From: a virus
Lineage: Duplodnaviria; Caudoviricetes
Reading direction: 5' to 3' (one strand)
Virus record (IMG/VR): IMGVR_UViG_3300048839_000639
Coordinates: 1-56,793 of that record
DNA length: 56,793 nucleotides
Below the pieces are notes generated by a model, which ran no database searches, was not told where the DNA came from, and saw only the letters and a list, made by a program, of their open reading frames with translations. Below, in pieces: positions 4,021-33,398 of the stretch; the stretch's first letter is position 1, and the number at the start of each line of letters is the position of its first letter. The translations under genes and the position numbers were made by a program.

Positions 4021-4347
4021 TTGGTGTGCCGGCTGTGGATTTTTGGGGACACACAGCCGGCAACCGAAAAATTGACTGTGGGGCAAAGCACAGCAGAAAC
4101 CGCGCACCCTCGTGCGGCTGGACCAGCCGCAGGATTCACACCCGACCCCGACGCGACACCACAAACGCCCTTTGAGGCGGAGCTGTTGCGCAATCTCCTC
4201 AGATTCATTCGGGCGCTCGATCAAAAACACAACATCGTCTTACAGCGCGGCATGTGGGTGGCCGTGCGCGCTTCACCGCGCGGCAGCGCAGGGCCGGACG
4301 CAAAACTGCTTGAGCTTGACAGCCGCATATTCAACAACGAATCATGA
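4021..4347 (+). CDS. Hypothetical protein (start uncertain)
   Basis: ORF whose stop overlaps the phosphoesterase ATG. Confidence 0.45.
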   Translation: MVCRLWIFGDTQPATEKLTVGQSTAETAHPRAAGPAAGFTPDPDATPQTPFEAELLRNLLRFIRALDQKHNIVLQRGMWVAVRASPRGSAGPDAKLLELDSRIFNNES

Positions 4348-9495: not shown

Positions 9496-9578
9496 TATAA
9501 TGCCCACAACGAAATAGCCAGCCAGCGATTACGCGGCGGCAATCTATCTCCGATAGGTTGCCGCCGCGTTTGCGTTTT
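9496..9578 (+). promoter_or_regulatory. -10 box followed by long leader hairpin and T-rich tract
   Basis: TATAAT at 9496; hairpin 9531-9569 (ACGCGGCGGCAATCTATC/GATAGGTTGCCGCCGCGT). Confidence 0.55.
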
Positions 9579-9583
9579 CCGCC

Positions 9584-9829
9584 ATGTCACCACAGGCAAA
9601 AGTCTTTCATGTCGTGTCCGTGAAGCTCCTGGTCGAGTCCACAAAGGACGGTGACGGCACTGCGGCTTACGAGCAAACGCTGGTTGCGCTTGAAGCCGCG
9701 CGCGGCCTGATTGCGCACGTCACAGGACGGGAAGTGCGCACGAAGGCGGCGATTTTGGAGCCGATTCGACTGATCGAACTGGCCCACGAGGAACAACCTC
9801 AAGAGGAAACAACCGATGACCGCAAGTGA
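9584..9829 (+). CDS. Hypothetical protein
   Basis: First ORF of the rightward cluster; overlaps the holin start. Confidence 0.6.
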   Translation: MSPQAKVFHVVSVKLLVESTKDGDGTAAYEQTLVALEAARGLIAHVTGREVRTKAAILEPIRLIELAHEEQPQEETTDDRK

Positions 9830-10106
9830 ACTTTCCGCACTGGCCGGCGTGATCCTGTCGCTGGCCTTCTCCTATGTCCCTGGCCTCAGTGCGTGGTTTG
9901 GCGACAAAGAGCCGACGGTGAAGCGCCTCATCATGGCCGGCGTGCTGCTGGTGGCCGTGGCTGCAATCTTCGGCCTGAGCTGCGCCGGCGTGCTCACCGC
10001 AGCGACCTGCGACCAGCCTGGTGCGGTGGGCCTCGCTGCCGCTTTTCTGTCTGCACTCGTTGCCAATCAGGCAACGTATCTCATCAGTCCGAGGCCGGCT
10101 GAGTGA
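9816..10106 (+). CDS. Holin-like membrane protein (3 TM)
   Basis: 96 aa with three hydrophobic helices, ending LVANQATY. Confidence 0.7.
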   Translation: MTASELSALAGVILSLAFSYVPGLSAWFGDKEPTVKRLIMAGVLLVAVAAIFGLSCAGVLTAATCDQPGAVGLAAAFLSALVANQATYLISPRPAE

Positions 10107-10405
10107 ATCCAGAGCGTGAAGGGCAGGTCACTCTAATGGATCAATACGCAGGTGCTTTTCTGGACATCGTTCGGCTGGTGCTGGTGGCCGTGGCCGCGTC
10201 GTTCGGCTCAACCGCTGCGCTCGTGCGGCATTTTGGCCGGCGCGAGGACATCGACCGCGCGGAAATAACGCGGCTGAAAGAAAACGAGGCGCGTCAAGAC
10301 CGCAAGATCGAGGATTTGCAGATTCAGGTCAAGACACTCACCGAATTTATGCGCTCGTCAGGGCATGACCCAAACCTCTACAGCGCCGCCCCACAAACCG
10401 GCTAG
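10103..10405 (+). CDS. Single-TM plus coiled-coil protein (holin/antiholin-like)
   Basis: N-terminal TM then heptad-like EITRLKENEARQDRKIEDLQIQVKTL. Confidence 0.65.
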   Translation: MNPEREGQVTLMDQYAGAFLDIVRLVLVAVAASFGSTAALVRHFGRREDIDRAEITRLKENEARQDRKIEDLQIQVKTLTEFMRSSGHDPNLYSAAPQTG

Positions 10406-10434
10406 GCGGCGCCGGACACATTCGTGAAACGCTG

Positions 10435-10632
10435 TTGGGCCGGCTTTTGAATGAGTTTGACAACAACGAAATCGACGACTTGCGATTGAAACTTGGATGG
10501 CGACAAGACGAACTTTGGAGCGACGGCGCAACCCTCGACGAACGGGCGCGCGCGCTGGTGGAAGCCTGCACGCGGCACGGCTCGCTCGGCTCGCTGCTGC
10601 GGCTGGTCGAGTTGTCGCGCCCTTCGTCGTGA
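10435..10632 (+). CDS. Effector-associated domain (EAD, Death-like) protein; possibly the -1 frame extension of 10103
   Basis: LLNEFDNNEIDDLRLKLG...L.....LDERARALVEACTRHGSLGSLL......RP matches the EAD helical pattern; no SD; frame is open from 10369. Confidence 0.65.
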   Translation: MGRLLNEFDNNEIDDLRLKLGWRQDELWSDGATLDERARALVEACTRHGSLGSLLRLVELSRPSS

Positions 10633-10814
10633 TGGCGCTGCTGGCGCTGCTGGCCGGCGTGATGGTGCTGATGATCGCGCGCGCCGGCGATGCCTGGTGC
10701 AGCGCGGCCATCCGCTGGCATGAGCCGCATCCGCAATCTAACTACCGCATCCCGTATCGCCCCTGTGAGGCGAACGGGTGGGGCAATGAATGGGAAATCG
10801 CCGGCATTCCATAG
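10632..10814 (+). CDS. Small exported/membrane-anchored protein
   Basis: Hydrophobic N-terminus and two Cys; TGATG overlap. Confidence 0.5.
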   Translation: MALLALLAGVMVLMIARAGDAWCSAAIRWHEPHPQSNYRIPYRPCEANGWGNEWEIAGIP

Positions 10815-10828
10815 CCGGCAGGAGAAAC

Positions 10829-12043
10829 ATGAACAACAAAGCTCGACACATTTCTGTTTTGATTCTGGCCGTGGCAATGCTCGCCACGCTGCCGGCCAGC
10901 GCGCAGGTGCCGAACGGCTATGACCCGCGCTTCGACATCAACGGCGACAACGTGATGGACATCCGCGACGTGACGATGCTCAGCACCGTCATTCAGGCCA
11001 ACTACGGCGCAACGAACAACACCGCGCCGGCCACGGCCACGCCGGTGGTCACCTCGACAGCCACCGCAACCCCTGCGCCGGCATCCACGGCGACGCCGGC
11101 GCCGACGGCAACGCCTGGGCACGATCACACCGCGCTCAATCGCTGCGGCGTGCCAATCGACCAGTGGTGGACGGCCACGGAGCCGAACGGCTGCGAGAAC
11201 GGCAGCGAGCGCGGCGACGCGCCGCCCACATGGGTAAAGGCATATGAAACGCAGCGCGGACGCACGTTCTCCATGCACGGCCCCAACCTCACCAGCGCGT
11301 CCGAGGCGTCCATGAAATTCATGGTCATGAAAGGCTATGGCTTCACTGTGCCGGTGGTCAGGCCGCGCAATGTGAACGTCGATGTGTATTGCGTGGTGCA
11401 CGGCGGCAGCGTGCCGTTTGAGCGCGCGCAGAAGGTGCATAGCTGGCGCTGCTGGTTCCGTGAGGGTGACAACGGCAACATCTCGGCCATTCAGGGCTGG
11501 TATCGAGCCCCTGGGTTTGCGTTTGAGCGCATCGTCGGTTTCGACGGCACGCCCAACCGCAACAACTTCCCCATTATTTTTGCGCCGTCTCGCGCATCGG
11601 CGGCGGCCGGTGGTGGCGGCTGCGAGCAGTGGTATGTCGGCGCGGCCGGCAGCGAGCCGAACATTGAATTCGGCATCACGTTCTGCGGCACGGTGGCATT
11701 CTGGCAGCCCAACGAAACCGCGCTGGACTTCGACATGTCGAAGTGGGACTTGAGCGGCCACAGCGGCACGCGCAGGCGCATGGAAATCAGCTACTACAAA
11801 ACTACGCGCCCCGACAACCAGCGCACCGGCATCTACTGGGCCACGCAGGCCGGCGTCCCAGTGAGCGGCCCGAATGATCCGGCCTGCACCGGCTCAACCG
11901 TGATTGACGGCGTGAGTTACGCGACGTTGTGCCTGGAGCAGAACGTCAGCACGACCCTGCCGGAAATCTCGTTTGCTTCGACGAACGGGCGCAATGCCTT
12001 TGAGCGCGATTACCCATCTGATGGCGTTGTCGCACCCAACTGA
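10829..12043 (+). CDS. Secreted protein: signal peptide, dockerin/EF-hand-like motif, Pro/Thr linker, Cys-containing domain
   Basis: ASA-Q cleavage site; DINGDNVMDIRDV; TATPAP linker; GGAG SD. Confidence 0.8.
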   Translation: MNNKARHISVLILAVAMLATLPASAQVPNGYDPRFDINGDNVMDIRDVTMLSTVIQANYGATNNTAPATATPVVTSTATATPAPASTATPAPTATPGHDHTALNRCGVPIDQWWTATEPNGCENGSERGDAPPTWVKAYETQRGRTFSMHGPNLTSASEASMKFMVMKGYGFTVPVVRPRNVNVDVYCVVHGGSVPFERAQKVHSWRCWFREGDNGNISAIQGWYRAPGFAFERIVGFDGTPNRNNFPIIFAPSRASAAAGGGGCEQWYVGAAGSEPNIEFGITFCGTVAFWQPNETALDFDMSKWDLSGHSGTRRRMEISYYKTTRPDNQRTGIYWATQAGVPVSGPNDPACTGSTVIDGVSYATLCLEQNVSTTLPEISFASTNGRNAFERDYPSDGVVAPN

Positions 12044-12113
12044 CCGCGCCGGACAAAACACAGTGACCCTGCCGGCGCGCACCCTGCGCGCCGGCTATTT
12101 GGAGGAATAACCC

Positions 12114-20749: not shown

Positions 20750-21310
20750 ATGAGCGAGCAGCCTGACCCCCCAACCCCTGACACGTCGGATAGCGGCGCG
20801 CCGGACAGCAAGCCGCCCCGACGAGGCCGGCCCACTGATTGCACGCCGGAGGCCACAAAATCCATCTCCGGCGCCATCTCGCTGGGCCTGACCTACAAGG
20901 ATGCGGCGCTGGCCGCGGACGTGTCATACAAGACGTTCATCAACTGGATGAAACGCGGACGCGACGAAGCCGCGCGCCTGCACGACGCCGGCCCGCGCGC
21001 CAAGCCCCGCGCCCGTGAACTGCCCTTTTTGGAATTCTTTTATGCTATAAAAAAGGCGAAGGCCAAAGGAAAGGCGCGGCTGGTCAAAACCATCTTCCAG
21101 CACTCCGAAACGAGCTGGCAGGCCGCGGCGTGGATTTTGGAACGCCGGCACCCGCGCCAGTTCGCGCTGCGCACACGTTCGGAAGTGACCGGCAAAGACG
21201 GCGGCCCCATCCAGCACGAGCACGCCACGGTAACGCTGGTGATGCCAGACAATGGACGCGGCGATGCCACGCAACCGACCACAACCCCGAACCCAAGCGC
21301 CGGCGACTGA
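20750..21310 (+). CDS. terS: Terminase small subunit
   Basis: GRPT..T, HTH, WQAAAWILERR.P..F and EVTGKDGGPI motifs; immediately before terL. Confidence 0.85.
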   Translation: MSEQPDPPTPDTSDSGAPDSKPPRRGRPTDCTPEATKSISGAISLGLTYKDAALAADVSYKTFINWMKRGRDEAARLHDAGPRAKPRARELPFLEFFYAIKKAKAKGKARLVKTIFQHSETSWQAAAWILERRHPRQFALRTRSEVTGKDGGPIQHEHATVTLVMPDNGRGDATQPTTTPNPSAGD

Positions 21311-30291: not shown

Positions 30292-30690
30292 ATGAAAGAG
30301 ATTGTCATCACGATTGCCGGCAAAGACTACACCGTGCAGCCGCTCAAGTTCAAGGGAAGCCGCTCATGGCGCATGGCGCTGGCCGAGAAATTCGACGGCA
30401 TTGTGGACGCGCTGCAAGGCGTGGGCATGGTGGAAGTGAAGGACATGGCCGGCATCGGCAGAATCATCGACGAGCTGAAAGGCACGTTGATTGGTTCGCT
30501 GGATACCGTTCTGGATTTGGTCTGCGCGTATGTGCCGGCCATCAGCGAGGATCGAGCGAGGATCGAGGAGGAGGCATTCGATGAGGAAATCATCGATGCG
30601 TTCACCCGCATCCTCGGCCTTGCATTCCCTTTAGGGAAAATTCTCGGTGCGATGAATGGCCTAACGGCCAGCACGACATCGAGGAGCTAG
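30292..30690 (+). CDS. Tail assembly chaperone (gpG-like)
   Basis: Between tube and tape measure genes; slippery C CCT TTA at 30627-30633. Confidence 0.8.
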   Translation: MKEIVITIAGKDYTVQPLKFKGSRSWRMALAEKFDGIVDALQGVGMVEVKDMAGIGRIIDELKGTLIGSLDTVLDLVCAYVPAISEDRARIEEEAFDEEIIDAFTRILGLAFPLGKILGAMNGLTASTTSRS

Positions 30691-30965
30691 TTTTCGGCGT
30701 TTACGGTCGCGCTGCCGACGACCTTGACGATTTTGATCGGGCATTGCTCGCGCATTCGTATGCGCGGCGCAAGCAGTTTGAGGCTCGACTGATCGCGGTG
30801 GAGGTGGCAAAGATGCTCACCGGCGCGACGGGTTCAACCCCTCATCCTGCCGGCGCCGCAGCCGGCGCACCAGCCGTTCGCACGGTGACCCGCACCGGCA
30901 AGGCCATGGATCGCGTGCCGGCGCGCGCGCTGCTCGATCAACTGGGCGCACGACTCGACTTCTAG
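30627..30965 (+). CDS. -1 frameshift extension of the chaperone (gpGT-like)
   Basis: The -1 frame is open from the slippery site to TAG 30965 and has no SD of its own. Confidence 0.75.
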   Translation, partial: PFRENSRCDEWPNGQHDIEELVFGVYGRAADDLDDFDRALLAHSYARRKQFEARLIAVEVAKMLTGATGSTPHPAGAAAGAPAVRTVTRTGKAMDRVPARALLDQLGARLDF

Positions 30966-30977
30966 CTTTTTATAGAC

Positions 30978-33398
30978 ATGGGCATCACACTCGGCGACCT
31001 TTTTGTCCGCATTCGCGGCGACCAGTCCGGCCTTGATGGCGACCTCAACCAGGCCGAGAAGAAGACGCAAGCCTCTGCCGGGCGCATGGGCGGCTTCTTC
31101 ACCGGCGCGCTGCAACACGCCGTCGGCGGCGCGATCCTCGGCGGCGTGCAGGCCATCGGAGGCGCGATCACCGGCGCCGTGTCGCAGGCGTGGGACGCCA
31201 CCAAGTCGTATGAATCCATGAGCGCGGCGCTCAACACGCTGCTCACCAAAGAGATTCAAACGCAAAGCGTCCAGGTCAAGCGCATCGCCGTCGGCCAGAA
31301 AACCATTCAAGTCACCGAAGGCGGCGCGGCTGCCGACTTGAAGAAGGGCGAGAGTGAGGCCGACCTTGCGTTCAAGATTCAAAAGACCACCAACGCCATT
31401 CAGGTGCAGAACGAGCGGCTGCAAGAGGCCATTGCAAAAGGCAAGGAATCGGCGGCAGAGATTGAAGCGCGCCGGCTGCGCATTCAGGGCATGGAAAACC
31501 AGCTTGCCGCGTTGAATGGCCGGCAGGGACAGGCCGGCACCGCCGTGTCCAAGACCATCACGCTCTACAAAGAGGAAAAGACCGCGGCCATTGACATCAT
31601 GACGGCGCGCAAGATGGCGGCGGAGAAAACCAAAGAGCTGATGGAGTGGTCTCAGAAACTCGCCATTCAGTCGCCCTACTCACAAGACGATGTGATTAAG
31701 GCCATGAAGATGGGCATCGCGCTCGGCTACAACTCCGACCAGGCCAAGCGGCTCACCAACGCCAACATCAACTTTGCGGCGGCGACCGGCGCGACCGGCG
31801 ACGCCATGAGCCGGATCACGCTTGCGCTCGGCCAGATGCAGGCCAAAGGCAAGCTGGCCGGCGGCGAGATGCTGCAACTCACCGAAGCCGGCGTGCCGAT
31901 GCGTGAGATTCTGCTTGAGTCCGGCAAGATCGCCGGCCTGACGACTGAGAACTTCGCCAAGATGCAGGAGAAGGGCTTGATTCCTGCGAAAGAGGCATAC
32001 GAAGCGTATGTCGAATACATGGAAAAGCACTTTCCAACGGCGGCGAAGGATCAAGCCAACACGCTCGCCGGCCTGCAAAACTCGTTTGAGGACTTGCAGA
32101 AGGTTGTATTGCGCACGGCCTTTGAGCCGATGTTTCGGGCGCTACAACCGTATCTGGTGAAGTTTGCCGAGGTCTTGCAGAATCCCGCGCTGCTCGCCAC
32201 CGTGCAGGGCATCGGCGCGGCGCTGGGGCAGGGCTTCGGCGCGGCGCTGAGCACGCTGATGACCTTCTTTTCGGTCATCGGCAACAACATCGCCGCCGGA
32301 CGCAACCCGCTCGATGCGCTGCGGCTGGCCCTGCTCAATGTCGTGCCGCCTGAGTTTGTGCCACTGGTGAACACAGTCATCAACACGATCAAGACTGTCA
32401 TTGGAACGGTGACGGGCCTTGTGGCGCAGTTTCAAACCGCGTCCGCCGGCGGCGCAGGTGGCATCATGGACATGCTCGGCCTGTCGCCGGAAGTGCAGGC
32501 CACGCTTACGGGCATCGTTGCCAGCATTCAGGGCATTCTCAGCCAGCTCGTGGCCTACGTTCAAGCGAATCTGCCGGCGATGAAAGCCGTTGCAACGGAT
32601 GTATTCAACGGCATCGGGTGGCTGGTGCAGAACGTGCTCGGCCCGTGGCTGCAATTCCTTGTCACGAAGGTGGGCGAGGTCATCGGGTGGGTGAACACCA
32701 ACATGCCGATGATGCTGCAAACCTTCAGCACAATCGTAAACGCGATCATGACGCTCTTTTCGACGGCATGGCCGACGATTCAACGGGTTGCGCTTTCGGC
32801 GCTGCAATCCTTGCAGGCCGGCGTGACGTTCGTTATCACGCTCATTCAGGGCATCATCACGTTTGCCATGCAGGCGATCAATGGCGACTGGGAAGCGGCA
32901 TGGGAAACGCTCAAGACCACGGCAGACACACTGTGGCAGGAGATTTTGACCTTCATGCAGGGCTTTCCAAAGGCCATGCTGGACATTGGCAAGAAGATCA
33001 TTGACGGCCTGATCGAAGGCGTGAAGTCAAAGGCAGTGCAGTTCAAAGAGGCGCTCTTGAGCATTCTGCCGCCGGCGATTCGCGCGGTGCTCGCGCAGAT
33101 GGGCATCGCGTCGCCGTCGAAGGTCACCATGAAGATCGGCAACCAGCTTGTCGATGGCTTGATTGTGCCGTTTGAAAAGCGCATGGGCGACGTGCGCGAG
33201 GCCATGACCGGCCTGATTCAGCCGATGGCGCAGGCCCCTGCCGGCGTGCCGGCGCTGGCCGGCGCGGTTGCAGCCGGCGCGTCTGGCGCCGGCAACACCA
33301 GCATCAATATCAACATGGGCGGCGTGCAGATGGCAAACGAGATGGACGCCTACAGCGTCGCGTATCGCATTGCAAAGCGCGTAAAGGATGGCATTTGA
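30978..33398 (+). CDS. Tape measure protein
   Basis: LGDLFVRI.GD start, tape-measure domain (ALGQMQAKGKL...EMLQL.EAGVP), Trp-periodic helices, GIASPSK. Confidence 0.93.
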   Translation: MGITLGDLFVRIRGDQSGLDGDLNQAEKKTQASAGRMGGFFTGALQHAVGGAILGGVQAIGGAITGAVSQAWDATKSYESMSAALNTLLTKEIQTQSVQVKRIAVGQKTIQVTEGGAAADLKKGESEADLAFKIQKTTNAIQVQNERLQEAIAKGKESAAEIEARRLRIQGMENQLAALNGRQGQAGTAVSKTITLYKEEKTAAIDIMTARKMAAEKTKELMEWSQKLAIQSPYSQDDVIKAMKMGIALGYNSDQAKRLTNANINFAAATGATGDAMSRITLALGQMQAKGKLAGGEMLQLTEAGVPMREILLESGKIAGLTTENFAKMQEKGLIPAKEAYEAYVEYMEKHFPTAAKDQANTLAGLQNSFEDLQKVVLRTAFEPMFRALQPYLVKFAEVLQNPALLATVQGIGAALGQGFGAALSTLMTFFSVIGNNIAAGRNPLDALRLALLNVVPPEFVPLVNTVINTIKTVIGTVTGLVAQFQTASAGGAGGIMDMLGLSPEVQATLTGIVASIQGILSQLVAYVQANLPAMKAVATDVFNGIGWLVQNVLGPWLQFLVTKVGEVIGWVNTNMPMMLQTFSTIVNAIMTLFSTAWPTIQRVALSALQSLQAGVTFVITLIQGIITFAMQAINGDWEAAWETLKTTADTLWQEILTFMQGFPKAMLDIGKKIIDGLIEGVKSKAVQFKEALLSILPPAIRAVLAQMGIASPSKVTMKIGNQLVDGLIVPFEKRMGDVREAMTGLIQPMAQAPAGVPALAGAVAAGASGAGNTSININMGGVQMANEMDAYSVAYRIAKRVKDGI

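Follow-up and report, generated by a model that had tools for sequence, protein, structure and literature searches.

The window analysed here is a linear viral record of 56,793 bases (IMG/VR record IMGVR_UViG_3300048839_000639), estimated to be 64% complete. Its genes for a large terminase, an SPP1-type portal and a tape-measure protein identify its source as a tailed phage. At 10136-10632 on the + strand lies a gene that, to judge from its sequence and that of its relatives, probably gives rise to two proteins by way of a -1 ribosomal frameshift: a short one with a membrane helix and a coiled coil, and a longer one that shares these parts and ends in a real EAD7 domain, a member of the EAD adaptor domains of bacterial conflict systems. 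This estimate covers the existence of the two forms and leaves their function aside. The original prediction, made from the letters of the sequence alone, had proposed such short and EAD-tailed forms, and it is now supported by a heptamer and frame arrangement conserved in four lineages, by the lack of a start codon for the domain in two of them, by the pattern of synonymous changes and by relatives in which the two halves are fused.

The slippery heptamer and the conserved frame break

The gene is made up of the following elements.

10136..10405, + strand: 0-frame open reading frame (ORF), the short form; 89 amino acids (aa), comprising a membrane helix at the N-terminus and a coiled coil; stop codon TAG at 10403-10405
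10369..10375, + strand: slippery heptamer C CCA AAC in X XXY YYZ phase; 0-frame codons GAC CCA AAC (D P N)
10383..10412, + strand: predicted stimulatory hairpin, beginning 7 nucleotides (nt) after the heptamer
10369..10632, + strand: -1 segment with a basic Pro-rich linker, the EAD7 domain (about 10426-10623) and a TGA stop codon

As listed, the ORF runs from GTG 10103 to TAG 10405. The start at 10103, taken over in the original prediction, gives way to ATG 10136 as the more likely one, because the latter aligns with the ORF starts of two relatives introduced below, L002 (GTG) and L012, and because an extension further upstream meets a stop codon in L002. The heptamer had been placed within this ORF in the correct phase and exactly where the -1 frame opens, and both statements hold: the codons at 10369-10375 read GAC CCA AAC, and the -1 frame, closed by TGA at 10366-10368, is open from 10369 and continues for 87 codons until the TGA at 10630-10632. 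The 0 frame ends at TAG 10403-10405, giving an overlap of 37 nt. The exact coincidence of heptamer and frame opening is peculiar to the window, the -1 frame being open for 324 nt upstream in L002 and for 195 nt in L004. Heptamers of the XXXYYYZ type occur 107 times, in any phase, on the + strand of the 56,793 nt; simple arithmetic puts the number expected in phase within the approximately 12 codon positions of the overlap at about 0.02. The window, L002 and L004 share a G-rich element resembling a Shine-Dalgarno (SD) sequence, placed 5 nt before the heptamer; it is missing from L012, and with this absence and its atypical spacing, no claim is made for it as a frameshift signal.

A protein-pattern scan of IMG/VR identified three loci. 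Two of these, L002 and L003, stem from records with different sample numbers and are identical over 5,013 nt, while L004 represents a separate lineage. All carry C CCA AAC in phase and the EAD in the -1 frame, and in the window as in these loci the 0-frame stop follows 28-37 nt after the start of the heptamer. A fourth lineage, L012, has the same synteny, an identical in-phase heptamer, a shorter membrane/coiled-coil ORF of 72 aa and, in the -1 frame, an EAD that has diverged further; it was found by a scan with a 20-letter motif, so that its heptamer is not an independent test. That scan returned 13 viral stretches (the three known contigs, L012 and 9 unrelated ones) and 74 stretches in genomes, none of the 74 having an EAD in the -1 frame (hmmsearch, E <= 10). 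Metagenome scans with queries A1 and P0041 and a genome scan with A1 found no relative, and P0041, P0007, P0005 and A6 gave no match among viral sequences; the corresponding scan with A1 recovered only the three known contigs, and the one with the L012 EAD peptide only L012's own contig. A tblastn search of 50,697 phage records with P0016 gave no match, and one with P0001 just three (E 0.3-0.8).

The membrane proteins of the window and L004 are 25% identical, with a conserved island, PN.YSA, at the slip site. For the EAD domain, comparisons among three lineages gave a synonymous divergence (dS) of 1.07-1.43 and a ratio of nonsynonymous to synonymous divergence (dN/dS) of 0.11-0.20, values that argue for an old frame break and an expressed domain. 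They also bear on the suspicion that the break stems from faulty assembly or sequencing, or that a recent mutation inactivated the gene and left the EAD as a decaying remnant. A single-base difference in frame is a common artefact of metagenome assembly, of the sequencing runs listed, none on record as RNA, one DNA run holds 5% of the words sampled and its contigs cover nothing between 10008 and 10517, and a 1-nt assembly error near 10390 had been named from the outset as an alternative. We find such an origin scarcely credible, since the break is old and shared and the domain is under purifying selection: independent assemblies from several records, at dS of about 1.1-1.4 from one another, have the same frame break and 0-frame stop, and the dN/dS values are not those of a remnant. 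The slip site, moreover, holds only C4 and A3 and no long homopolymer; on the latter ground transcriptional slippage was likewise rejected.

The break could instead mark a division into two separate proteins, an ancestral fused gene having been split so that the EAD is now translated from TTG 10435 or from a non-canonical codon, perhaps by restart after the TAG at 10403-10405. TTG 10435 is the first ATG, GTG or TTG of the EAD frame in the window; the TTG lies 30 nt after the 0-frame stop in the window and 36 nt after it in L004, at the first helix of the domain. Products of 65-67 aa (P0003, P0004) have been annotated as separate proteins by gene callers, stand-alone EAD7 proteins of 54-117 aa (P0005 and P0007 among them) occur among the database hits described below, and the heptamer is of a class that is weak in E. 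coli according to the relevant text of Sharma et al. (2014; PMC4066793). We nevertheless consider this improbable, and favour a frameshift over a separate start because of the missing start codons in L002/L003 and L012, the missing SD sequence, the synonymous changes in the -1 frame and the fused relatives. The first ATG, GTG or TTG after the heptamer is codon 60 in L002/L003, which is inside the domain, and codon 36 in L012, where no ORF of at least 55 aa is listed in the frame; with starts so placed, an intact domain, as far as its sequence tells, cannot start alone in either. The 20 nt before TTG 10435 contain no GGAG, GAGG or AGGA by eye, in agreement with the earlier remark that the domain has no SD, and the Leu codon at the supposed start varies between CTG and TTG among the lineages.

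The pattern of substitution points the same way. Between the slip site and the domain, the window and L004 differ in 14 codons, 7 of which are synonymous when read in the -1 frame, and the same holds for 7/14 between L002 and L004. The only insertion or deletion in this region is of 3 nt. In the overlap, CTA alternates with TTA and CGC with CGG, and the 0-frame residue there varies between L, A and D. By this pattern the -1 frame is under selection from the heptamer on, upstream of any possible start, and the heptamer itself has been kept at dS above 1.

A predicted hairpin follows the heptamer. Its consensus stem has 10 pairs over 4 sequences, with 6 GC pairs invariant and one pair broken in L004; one pair is compensatory, with U-A in L012 where the other three sequences have C-G. 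For the 45 nt that follow the heptamer, the folding energies are -18.9 (window), -23.6 (L002) and -18.6 kcal/mol (L004); of 586 45-mers taken from the window, fractions of 0.082, 0.007 and 0.087, in the same order, reach at least this stability. A GC hairpin at canonical spacing is plausible rather than proven. As regards efficiency, the text of PMC4066793 on heptamer classes gives V_VV.A_AA.R as the efficient class in E. coli and does not count A_AA.C among the shift-prone A-site tetramers; with a strong stimulator, 61/64 heptamers shifted at more than twice background, and C_CC.A_AA.C is not one of the three failures named there. Because A_AA.C is not shift-prone in E. coli, a low slip rate is to be expected, and the long form is probably a minor product.

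The tail assembly chaperones of phages are made with -1 frameshifts of the lambda G/GT type. These and E. coli dnaX resemble the present gene in having an in-phase X XXY YYZ heptamer with a hairpin downstream, and in yielding two products with a common N-terminus, of which the longer is probably the minor one in our case. Unlike the tail chaperones, the gene described here is not structural and the added part is an immune-type adaptor domain, and its A-site codon, AAC, is of the weak class in E. coli. The same phage also has an in-phase C CCT TTA at 30627-30633, in a 132-aa ORF before the tape-measure gene (30978-33398), with a -1 frame of 113 codons that runs to 30965; read from sequence, the region 30292-30965 is a classic tail chaperone frameshift arrangement of the G/GT type.

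The EAD7 domain and its fused relatives

The helical domain in the -1 frame had been called an EAD from its translation, and profile searches agree. The product of 10435-10632 matches Pfam EAD7 (PF19960) with 32.4 bits (E 8.2e-8) against a cut-off of 32; the 87-aa form reaches 31.6 bits, and a genome search gives 31.4 bits, below the cut-off. Each of the 30 aligned relatives (alignment A5) matches EAD7 at E <= 1e-3, the best of them at 5.1e-19. Similarity to an EAD profile is therefore present, namely to EAD7, and we regard the segment as a real EAD7 domain on the strength of these profile matches. In the text that PMC7159879 (Kaur, Burroughs, Iyer and Aravind 2020) devotes to them, EADs are adaptors that couple effectors to core conflict components by like-with-like contacts, and in the corresponding text of that paper and of PMC8195603 (2021, same authors) EAD7 is among the EADs said to recruit effectors. 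The domain found here agrees with the EAD7 family as described there in its profile match and as a small, non-enzymatic, all-helical terminal domain; it differs in being encoded by a phage and carried on a membrane helix and a coiled coil rather than by an effector or core conflict component, with no second copy nearby. Phage-encoded EADs are not mentioned in the text of the two papers on phage or viral terms, a statement that does not extend to their source data.

An AlphaFold2 (AF2) model of the domain (pLDDT 79.7) is all-alpha with five helices. The earlier suggestion of a Death-like fold stands only in part. When the model was aligned with VIA-align to 48,161 chains, CARD, Death and DED entries came out on top: the best match was the NOD1 CARD (Z 7.9, root-mean-square deviation (rmsd) 4.0 A over 75 residues), the bacterial death-like domain 8ss1 followed at Z 7.7 (rmsd 2.3 A over 69 residues), and 36 of 50 rows among the matches listed were death-fold entries by title, a Z under 8 being common for helical models. 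Foldseek gave no match at E <= 1e-3 against the PDB (best 1.1) or against the viral models of BFVD (best 0.85). A modest resemblance to the Death fold can thus be retained (Z 7.9 at best), and membership is not demonstrated.

Whether the two halves occur fused in homologues was asked with a profile of the four close sequences, searched with HMMER against 1.84 billion representatives; there were 37 hits at E <= 1e-3, and 21 of the 37 sequences were retrieved. Fusion is indeed seen: 14/37 are single ORFs (166-201 aa) that begin with a hydrophobic helix, continue through a long helix and a Pro-rich linker, and have EAD7 at the C-terminus in all 14 cases. The model of one of these, P0016 (pLDDT 88.5), has helices at residues 6-36 and 39-97, a linker at 98-112 and the domain at 113-180. 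The 0 frame of the window aligns to the fused family up to P79 (hhalign E 4e-4 over 20 columns), the residue encoded by the heptamer's P-site codon, and the -1 frame continues this alignment collinearly with a probability of 98.9% (E 1.2e-17). In the ESM Atlas the nearest clusters have lengths of 172-197 aa; EAD7 occurs in 96-100% of their sequences, and 50-80% of those with an assigned taxon belong to viruses. The cluster of P0016, which also holds P0041, bears the label 'SlyX' coiled-coil and is the only one to carry a name among the clusters of the ten fused relatives queried, all of which come from metagenome sources. A word-based search with A4 returned 7 proteins.

The hits also include stand-alone EAD7 proteins of 54-117 aa and, among the longer ones, cellular proteins with EAD7 in tandem. 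Nine long hits were scanned against Pfam: 8 are EAD7 proteins, 7 of them with two to five matched EAD7 stretches, and individual ones carry bDLD1, NPHP3_N (STAND) or CHAT as well. The ninth is of a different kind: in P0006 (2,474 aa), ten stretches match the phage EAD profile (E 3.9e-16), Pfam EAD7 is absent at 1e-3, and the Pfam matches are limited to Sigma54_activ_2 and Cna_B, both sub-threshold in appearance. P0006 may be a repeat protein or a divergent EAD array.

Several observations weigh against the account of two forms from one gene and deserve to be taken together. C CCA AAC should shift only weakly in E. coli, which may not be the host of this phage. For the hairpin, dinucleotide shuffling gave z values of -0.14, 0.06 and -1.31, which are not significant, and 6 of the 10 stem pairs are invariant and hence uninformative in a region whose double coding by itself conserves sequence. 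There are four lineages in total, one of them ascertained by the motif, and the synonymous counts are small. In the window and in L004 a TTG occurs close to where the domain begins. The EAD7 score is borderline, sitting on the Pfam cut-off, the N-terminal part aligns weakly with the fused family (probability 35%), and the genome search found only one EAD7 match in the 56.8-kb record, so that the second copy expected under the paired-copy rule of EADs would have to come from the host. Finally, the position of the gene between membrane proteins and a secreted protein fits lysis as well as anti-defence.

What the two forms may do

We suggest that ordinary reading of 10136-10405 would produce the 89-aa protein, with a membrane helix and a cytoplasmic, self-pairing coiled coil. 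In a minority of ribosomes the tRNAs on CCA-AAC would slip back by one base, aided by the GC hairpin 7 nt downstream, and reading in the -1 frame would then pass through the basic Pro-rich linker into EAD7, yielding a protein of approximately 165 aa that consists of membrane helix, coiled coil, linker and EAD7. Both forms would carry the dimerising part and so could mix, and the rate of slipping would set the number of EAD7 tips displayed on membrane-bound assemblies. The slipping and its rate, the topology, the mixing of the forms and the target are features that we infer.

In the 89-aa protein a hydrophobic helix (residues 5-23) is followed by a charged, heptad-like helix. There are 0 K/R before the hydrophobic window and 3 in the 15 residues after it, and the bias is general: in 18/18 proteins (the window and 17 fused relatives) 0-1 K/R precede the helix and 2-6 occur in the 15 residues that follow. 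By the positive-inside rule this distribution would place the N-terminus outside and the C-terminus inside, so that the coiled coil and EAD7 would presumably face the cytoplasm. A two-copy model of the 89-aa form, built from a 3-row alignment made for this analysis, has a parallel, in-register interface over residues 15-72 with a score of 0.42, the best of 3 controls scoring 0.00; at least 73% of contacts recur between the three runs, and the partner's pLDDT is at least 76. A mark of 0.42 is reached by 20/30 proteins solved as pairs and by 1/23 solved as single chains, so the model supports, and does not show, pairing of the 89-aa form with itself. Because the interface lies upstream of the slip site, it would be common to both forms.

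As to the target, we tentatively propose, as a possibility that falls short of an even chance, that the cytoplasmic EAD7 tip binds host EAD7 proteins, such as STAND NTPases, CHAT/caspase-like proteins or those bearing bDLD, and holds or caps them at the membrane, thereby blunting abortive-infection signalling. A membrane-tethered adaptor that engages host EAD7 is favoured because EADs couple like with like and because there is a precedent. In the part of the preprint by Wein et al. (PMC10312443) that concerns it, the CARD-only protein pCARD of Acinetobacter phage 133 inhibits a bacterial CARD-dependent gasdermin system. The likeness, to the extent that pCARD is described there, lies in a phage-borne, adaptor-type, death-fold-like domain with no enzymatic part, and the bacterial death-like domain 8ss1 is among the best structural matches of our EAD model. 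The differences are also clear from that description: pCARD is soluble and consists of the domain only, whereas the present protein would be anchored in the membrane via a coiled coil and reached by frameshifting, and its domain is of the EAD7 family rather than CARD-like.

The current view is that EADs and bacterial death-like domains link immune and suicide proteins to one another, much like CARD and Death domains in animals. Animal viruses, along with the one phage that has pCARD, carry adaptor-only copies that jam such wiring. The present locus leads to a family of membrane-anchored EAD7 proteins, widespread and mostly viral, of which no description was found in the literature searched, and to one branch of that family in which the adaptor would be reached only via a conserved frameshift. 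If this is true, it would be a rare case of a conserved frameshift outside the structural and replication genes of phages and a natural dosage control for an immune-type adaptor, and it would provide a handle for finding the host EAD7 systems that phages must deal with. Our literature search found no paper on phage EAD proteins or on CCCAAAC recoding at such a domain, the source data of the founding EAD papers lying outside its coverage.

Gene neighbourhood, a possible role in lysis and other candidate recoding sites

Three neighbouring features are relevant to the possible role of the gene.

9816..10106, + strand: ORF for a 96-aa protein with 2-3 hydrophobic segments; conserved counterparts in synteny in L002 (94 aa) and L012 (96 aa)
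10632..10814, + strand: small hydrophobic ORF of 60 aa, whose ATG overlaps the TGA of the EAD frame (TGATG)
10829..12043, + strand: secreted protein of 404 aa with a weak dockerin-like stretch (Dockerin_1 only at E 0.16)

The 96-aa protein, preceded by an SD-like GAGGA before 9816, has no significant Pfam, PHROG, PADLOC or NCBIfam family; its context suggests that it may be holin-like. In L004 a 125-aa membrane protein precedes the membrane/coiled-coil ORF. The 60-aa ORF has no match among Pfam, PHROG, PADLOC and NCBIfam families; an equivalent in L004 has a GTG start that overlaps the EAD stop (at about 4193-4197), and L012 lacks the ORF. No SD is visible for it in the window (overlap at 10630-10634) or in L004, and ribosomes coming out of the -1 frame may be needed to translate it (translational coupling). 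The secreted protein is preceded by AGGAG before 10829. It has no sequence match in the PDB and no PHROG, PADLOC or NCBIfam family, and larger homologues occupy the same position in L002 (3286-5148) and L012 (2853-4309).

These surroundings bring up a second use for the two forms, in which they would set the timing of lysis: EAD7 tips would cluster the phage protein itself or its holin-like neighbour, and the short form would dilute them. In the window, L002 and L012 the gene comes directly after the protein with several hydrophobic segments and is followed by the small hydrophobic ORF (except in L012) and the secreted protein; in L004 it comes after the 125-aa membrane protein, and the part shared by both forms was modelled as a homodimer (0.42, against 0.00 for the best control). 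The holin/antiholin pair of lambda S (S105/S107) comes from one gene. Lambda S resembles our case as a pair of membrane-protein isoforms from one gene, in a late lysis-like cluster, with a ratio set by translation; it differs in its dual start codons and in isoforms that are distinguished by two N-terminal residues, with no frameshift and no sequence relation, and a holin match is lacking here. The only match of the membrane/coiled-coil protein to a holin-associated family is to XhlA, at the level of the coiled coil (E 0.0058, 17.2 bits, cut-off 34.7). An i-spanin (Rz-like) identity, which would call for an N-in anchor with a periplasmic coiled coil and a lipoprotein o-spanin as partner, was rejected, the C-terminal part being predicted to be cytoplasmic and a lipobox being absent, by eye, from the 60-aa ORF downstream.

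On balance we hold a role in lysis timing to be doubtful, and less likely than an encounter with host EAD7 proteins. Neighbours of the gene match no holin, endolysin or spanin family (Pfam, PHROG, PDB, PADLOC, NCBIfam), no recognisable endolysin adjoins it, and the lysis cassette is itself something read from context. Every EAD role given in the pertinent text of PMC7159879 and PMC8195603 is a coupling to other EAD-bearing conflict proteins, and there is no second EAD7 in the window. PADLOC and NCBIfam return nothing for the membrane/coiled-coil half, the EAD half or the neighbours, nor do PHROGs match the two pieces at E <= 0.001. A combination of the two ideas, and something of a long shot, is that the phage has no classical endolysin and would, late in infection, use the frameshift-dosed EAD7 tip to dock EAD7-coupled suicide effectors of its host (CHAT caspase-like peptidases, STAND assemblies) on its own membrane complex, making a lysis device out of the host's abortive-infection machinery, with the slip rate as the timer.

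The secreted protein after the cassette deserves a remark of its own. Its length ranges from 404 to about 620 aa across the window, L002 and L012. It contains linkers rich in Thr, Pro and Ala as well as His-rich motifs, has no match among families or solved structures, and occupies the place where an endolysin would be expected. As to the phage itself, a blastn search with 9500-12100 found no GenBank phage record similar at the DNA level, and the terminase has distant relatives in phages with very different hosts.

Two further sites in the window have the form of a -1 recoding signal. One, C CCA AAA, is in phase 13 nt ahead of the stop codon of a 567-aa ORF (344-2047), with the -1 frame open for 167 codons (to 2538); the -1 tail at 2035-2538 is acidic and of low complexity, and the site could be a second recoding site or a product of chance. 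An A AAA AAG at 21049-21055 is in phase in the ORF 20750-21310, and from it the -1 frame is open for 136 codons into the region where the large terminase starts.

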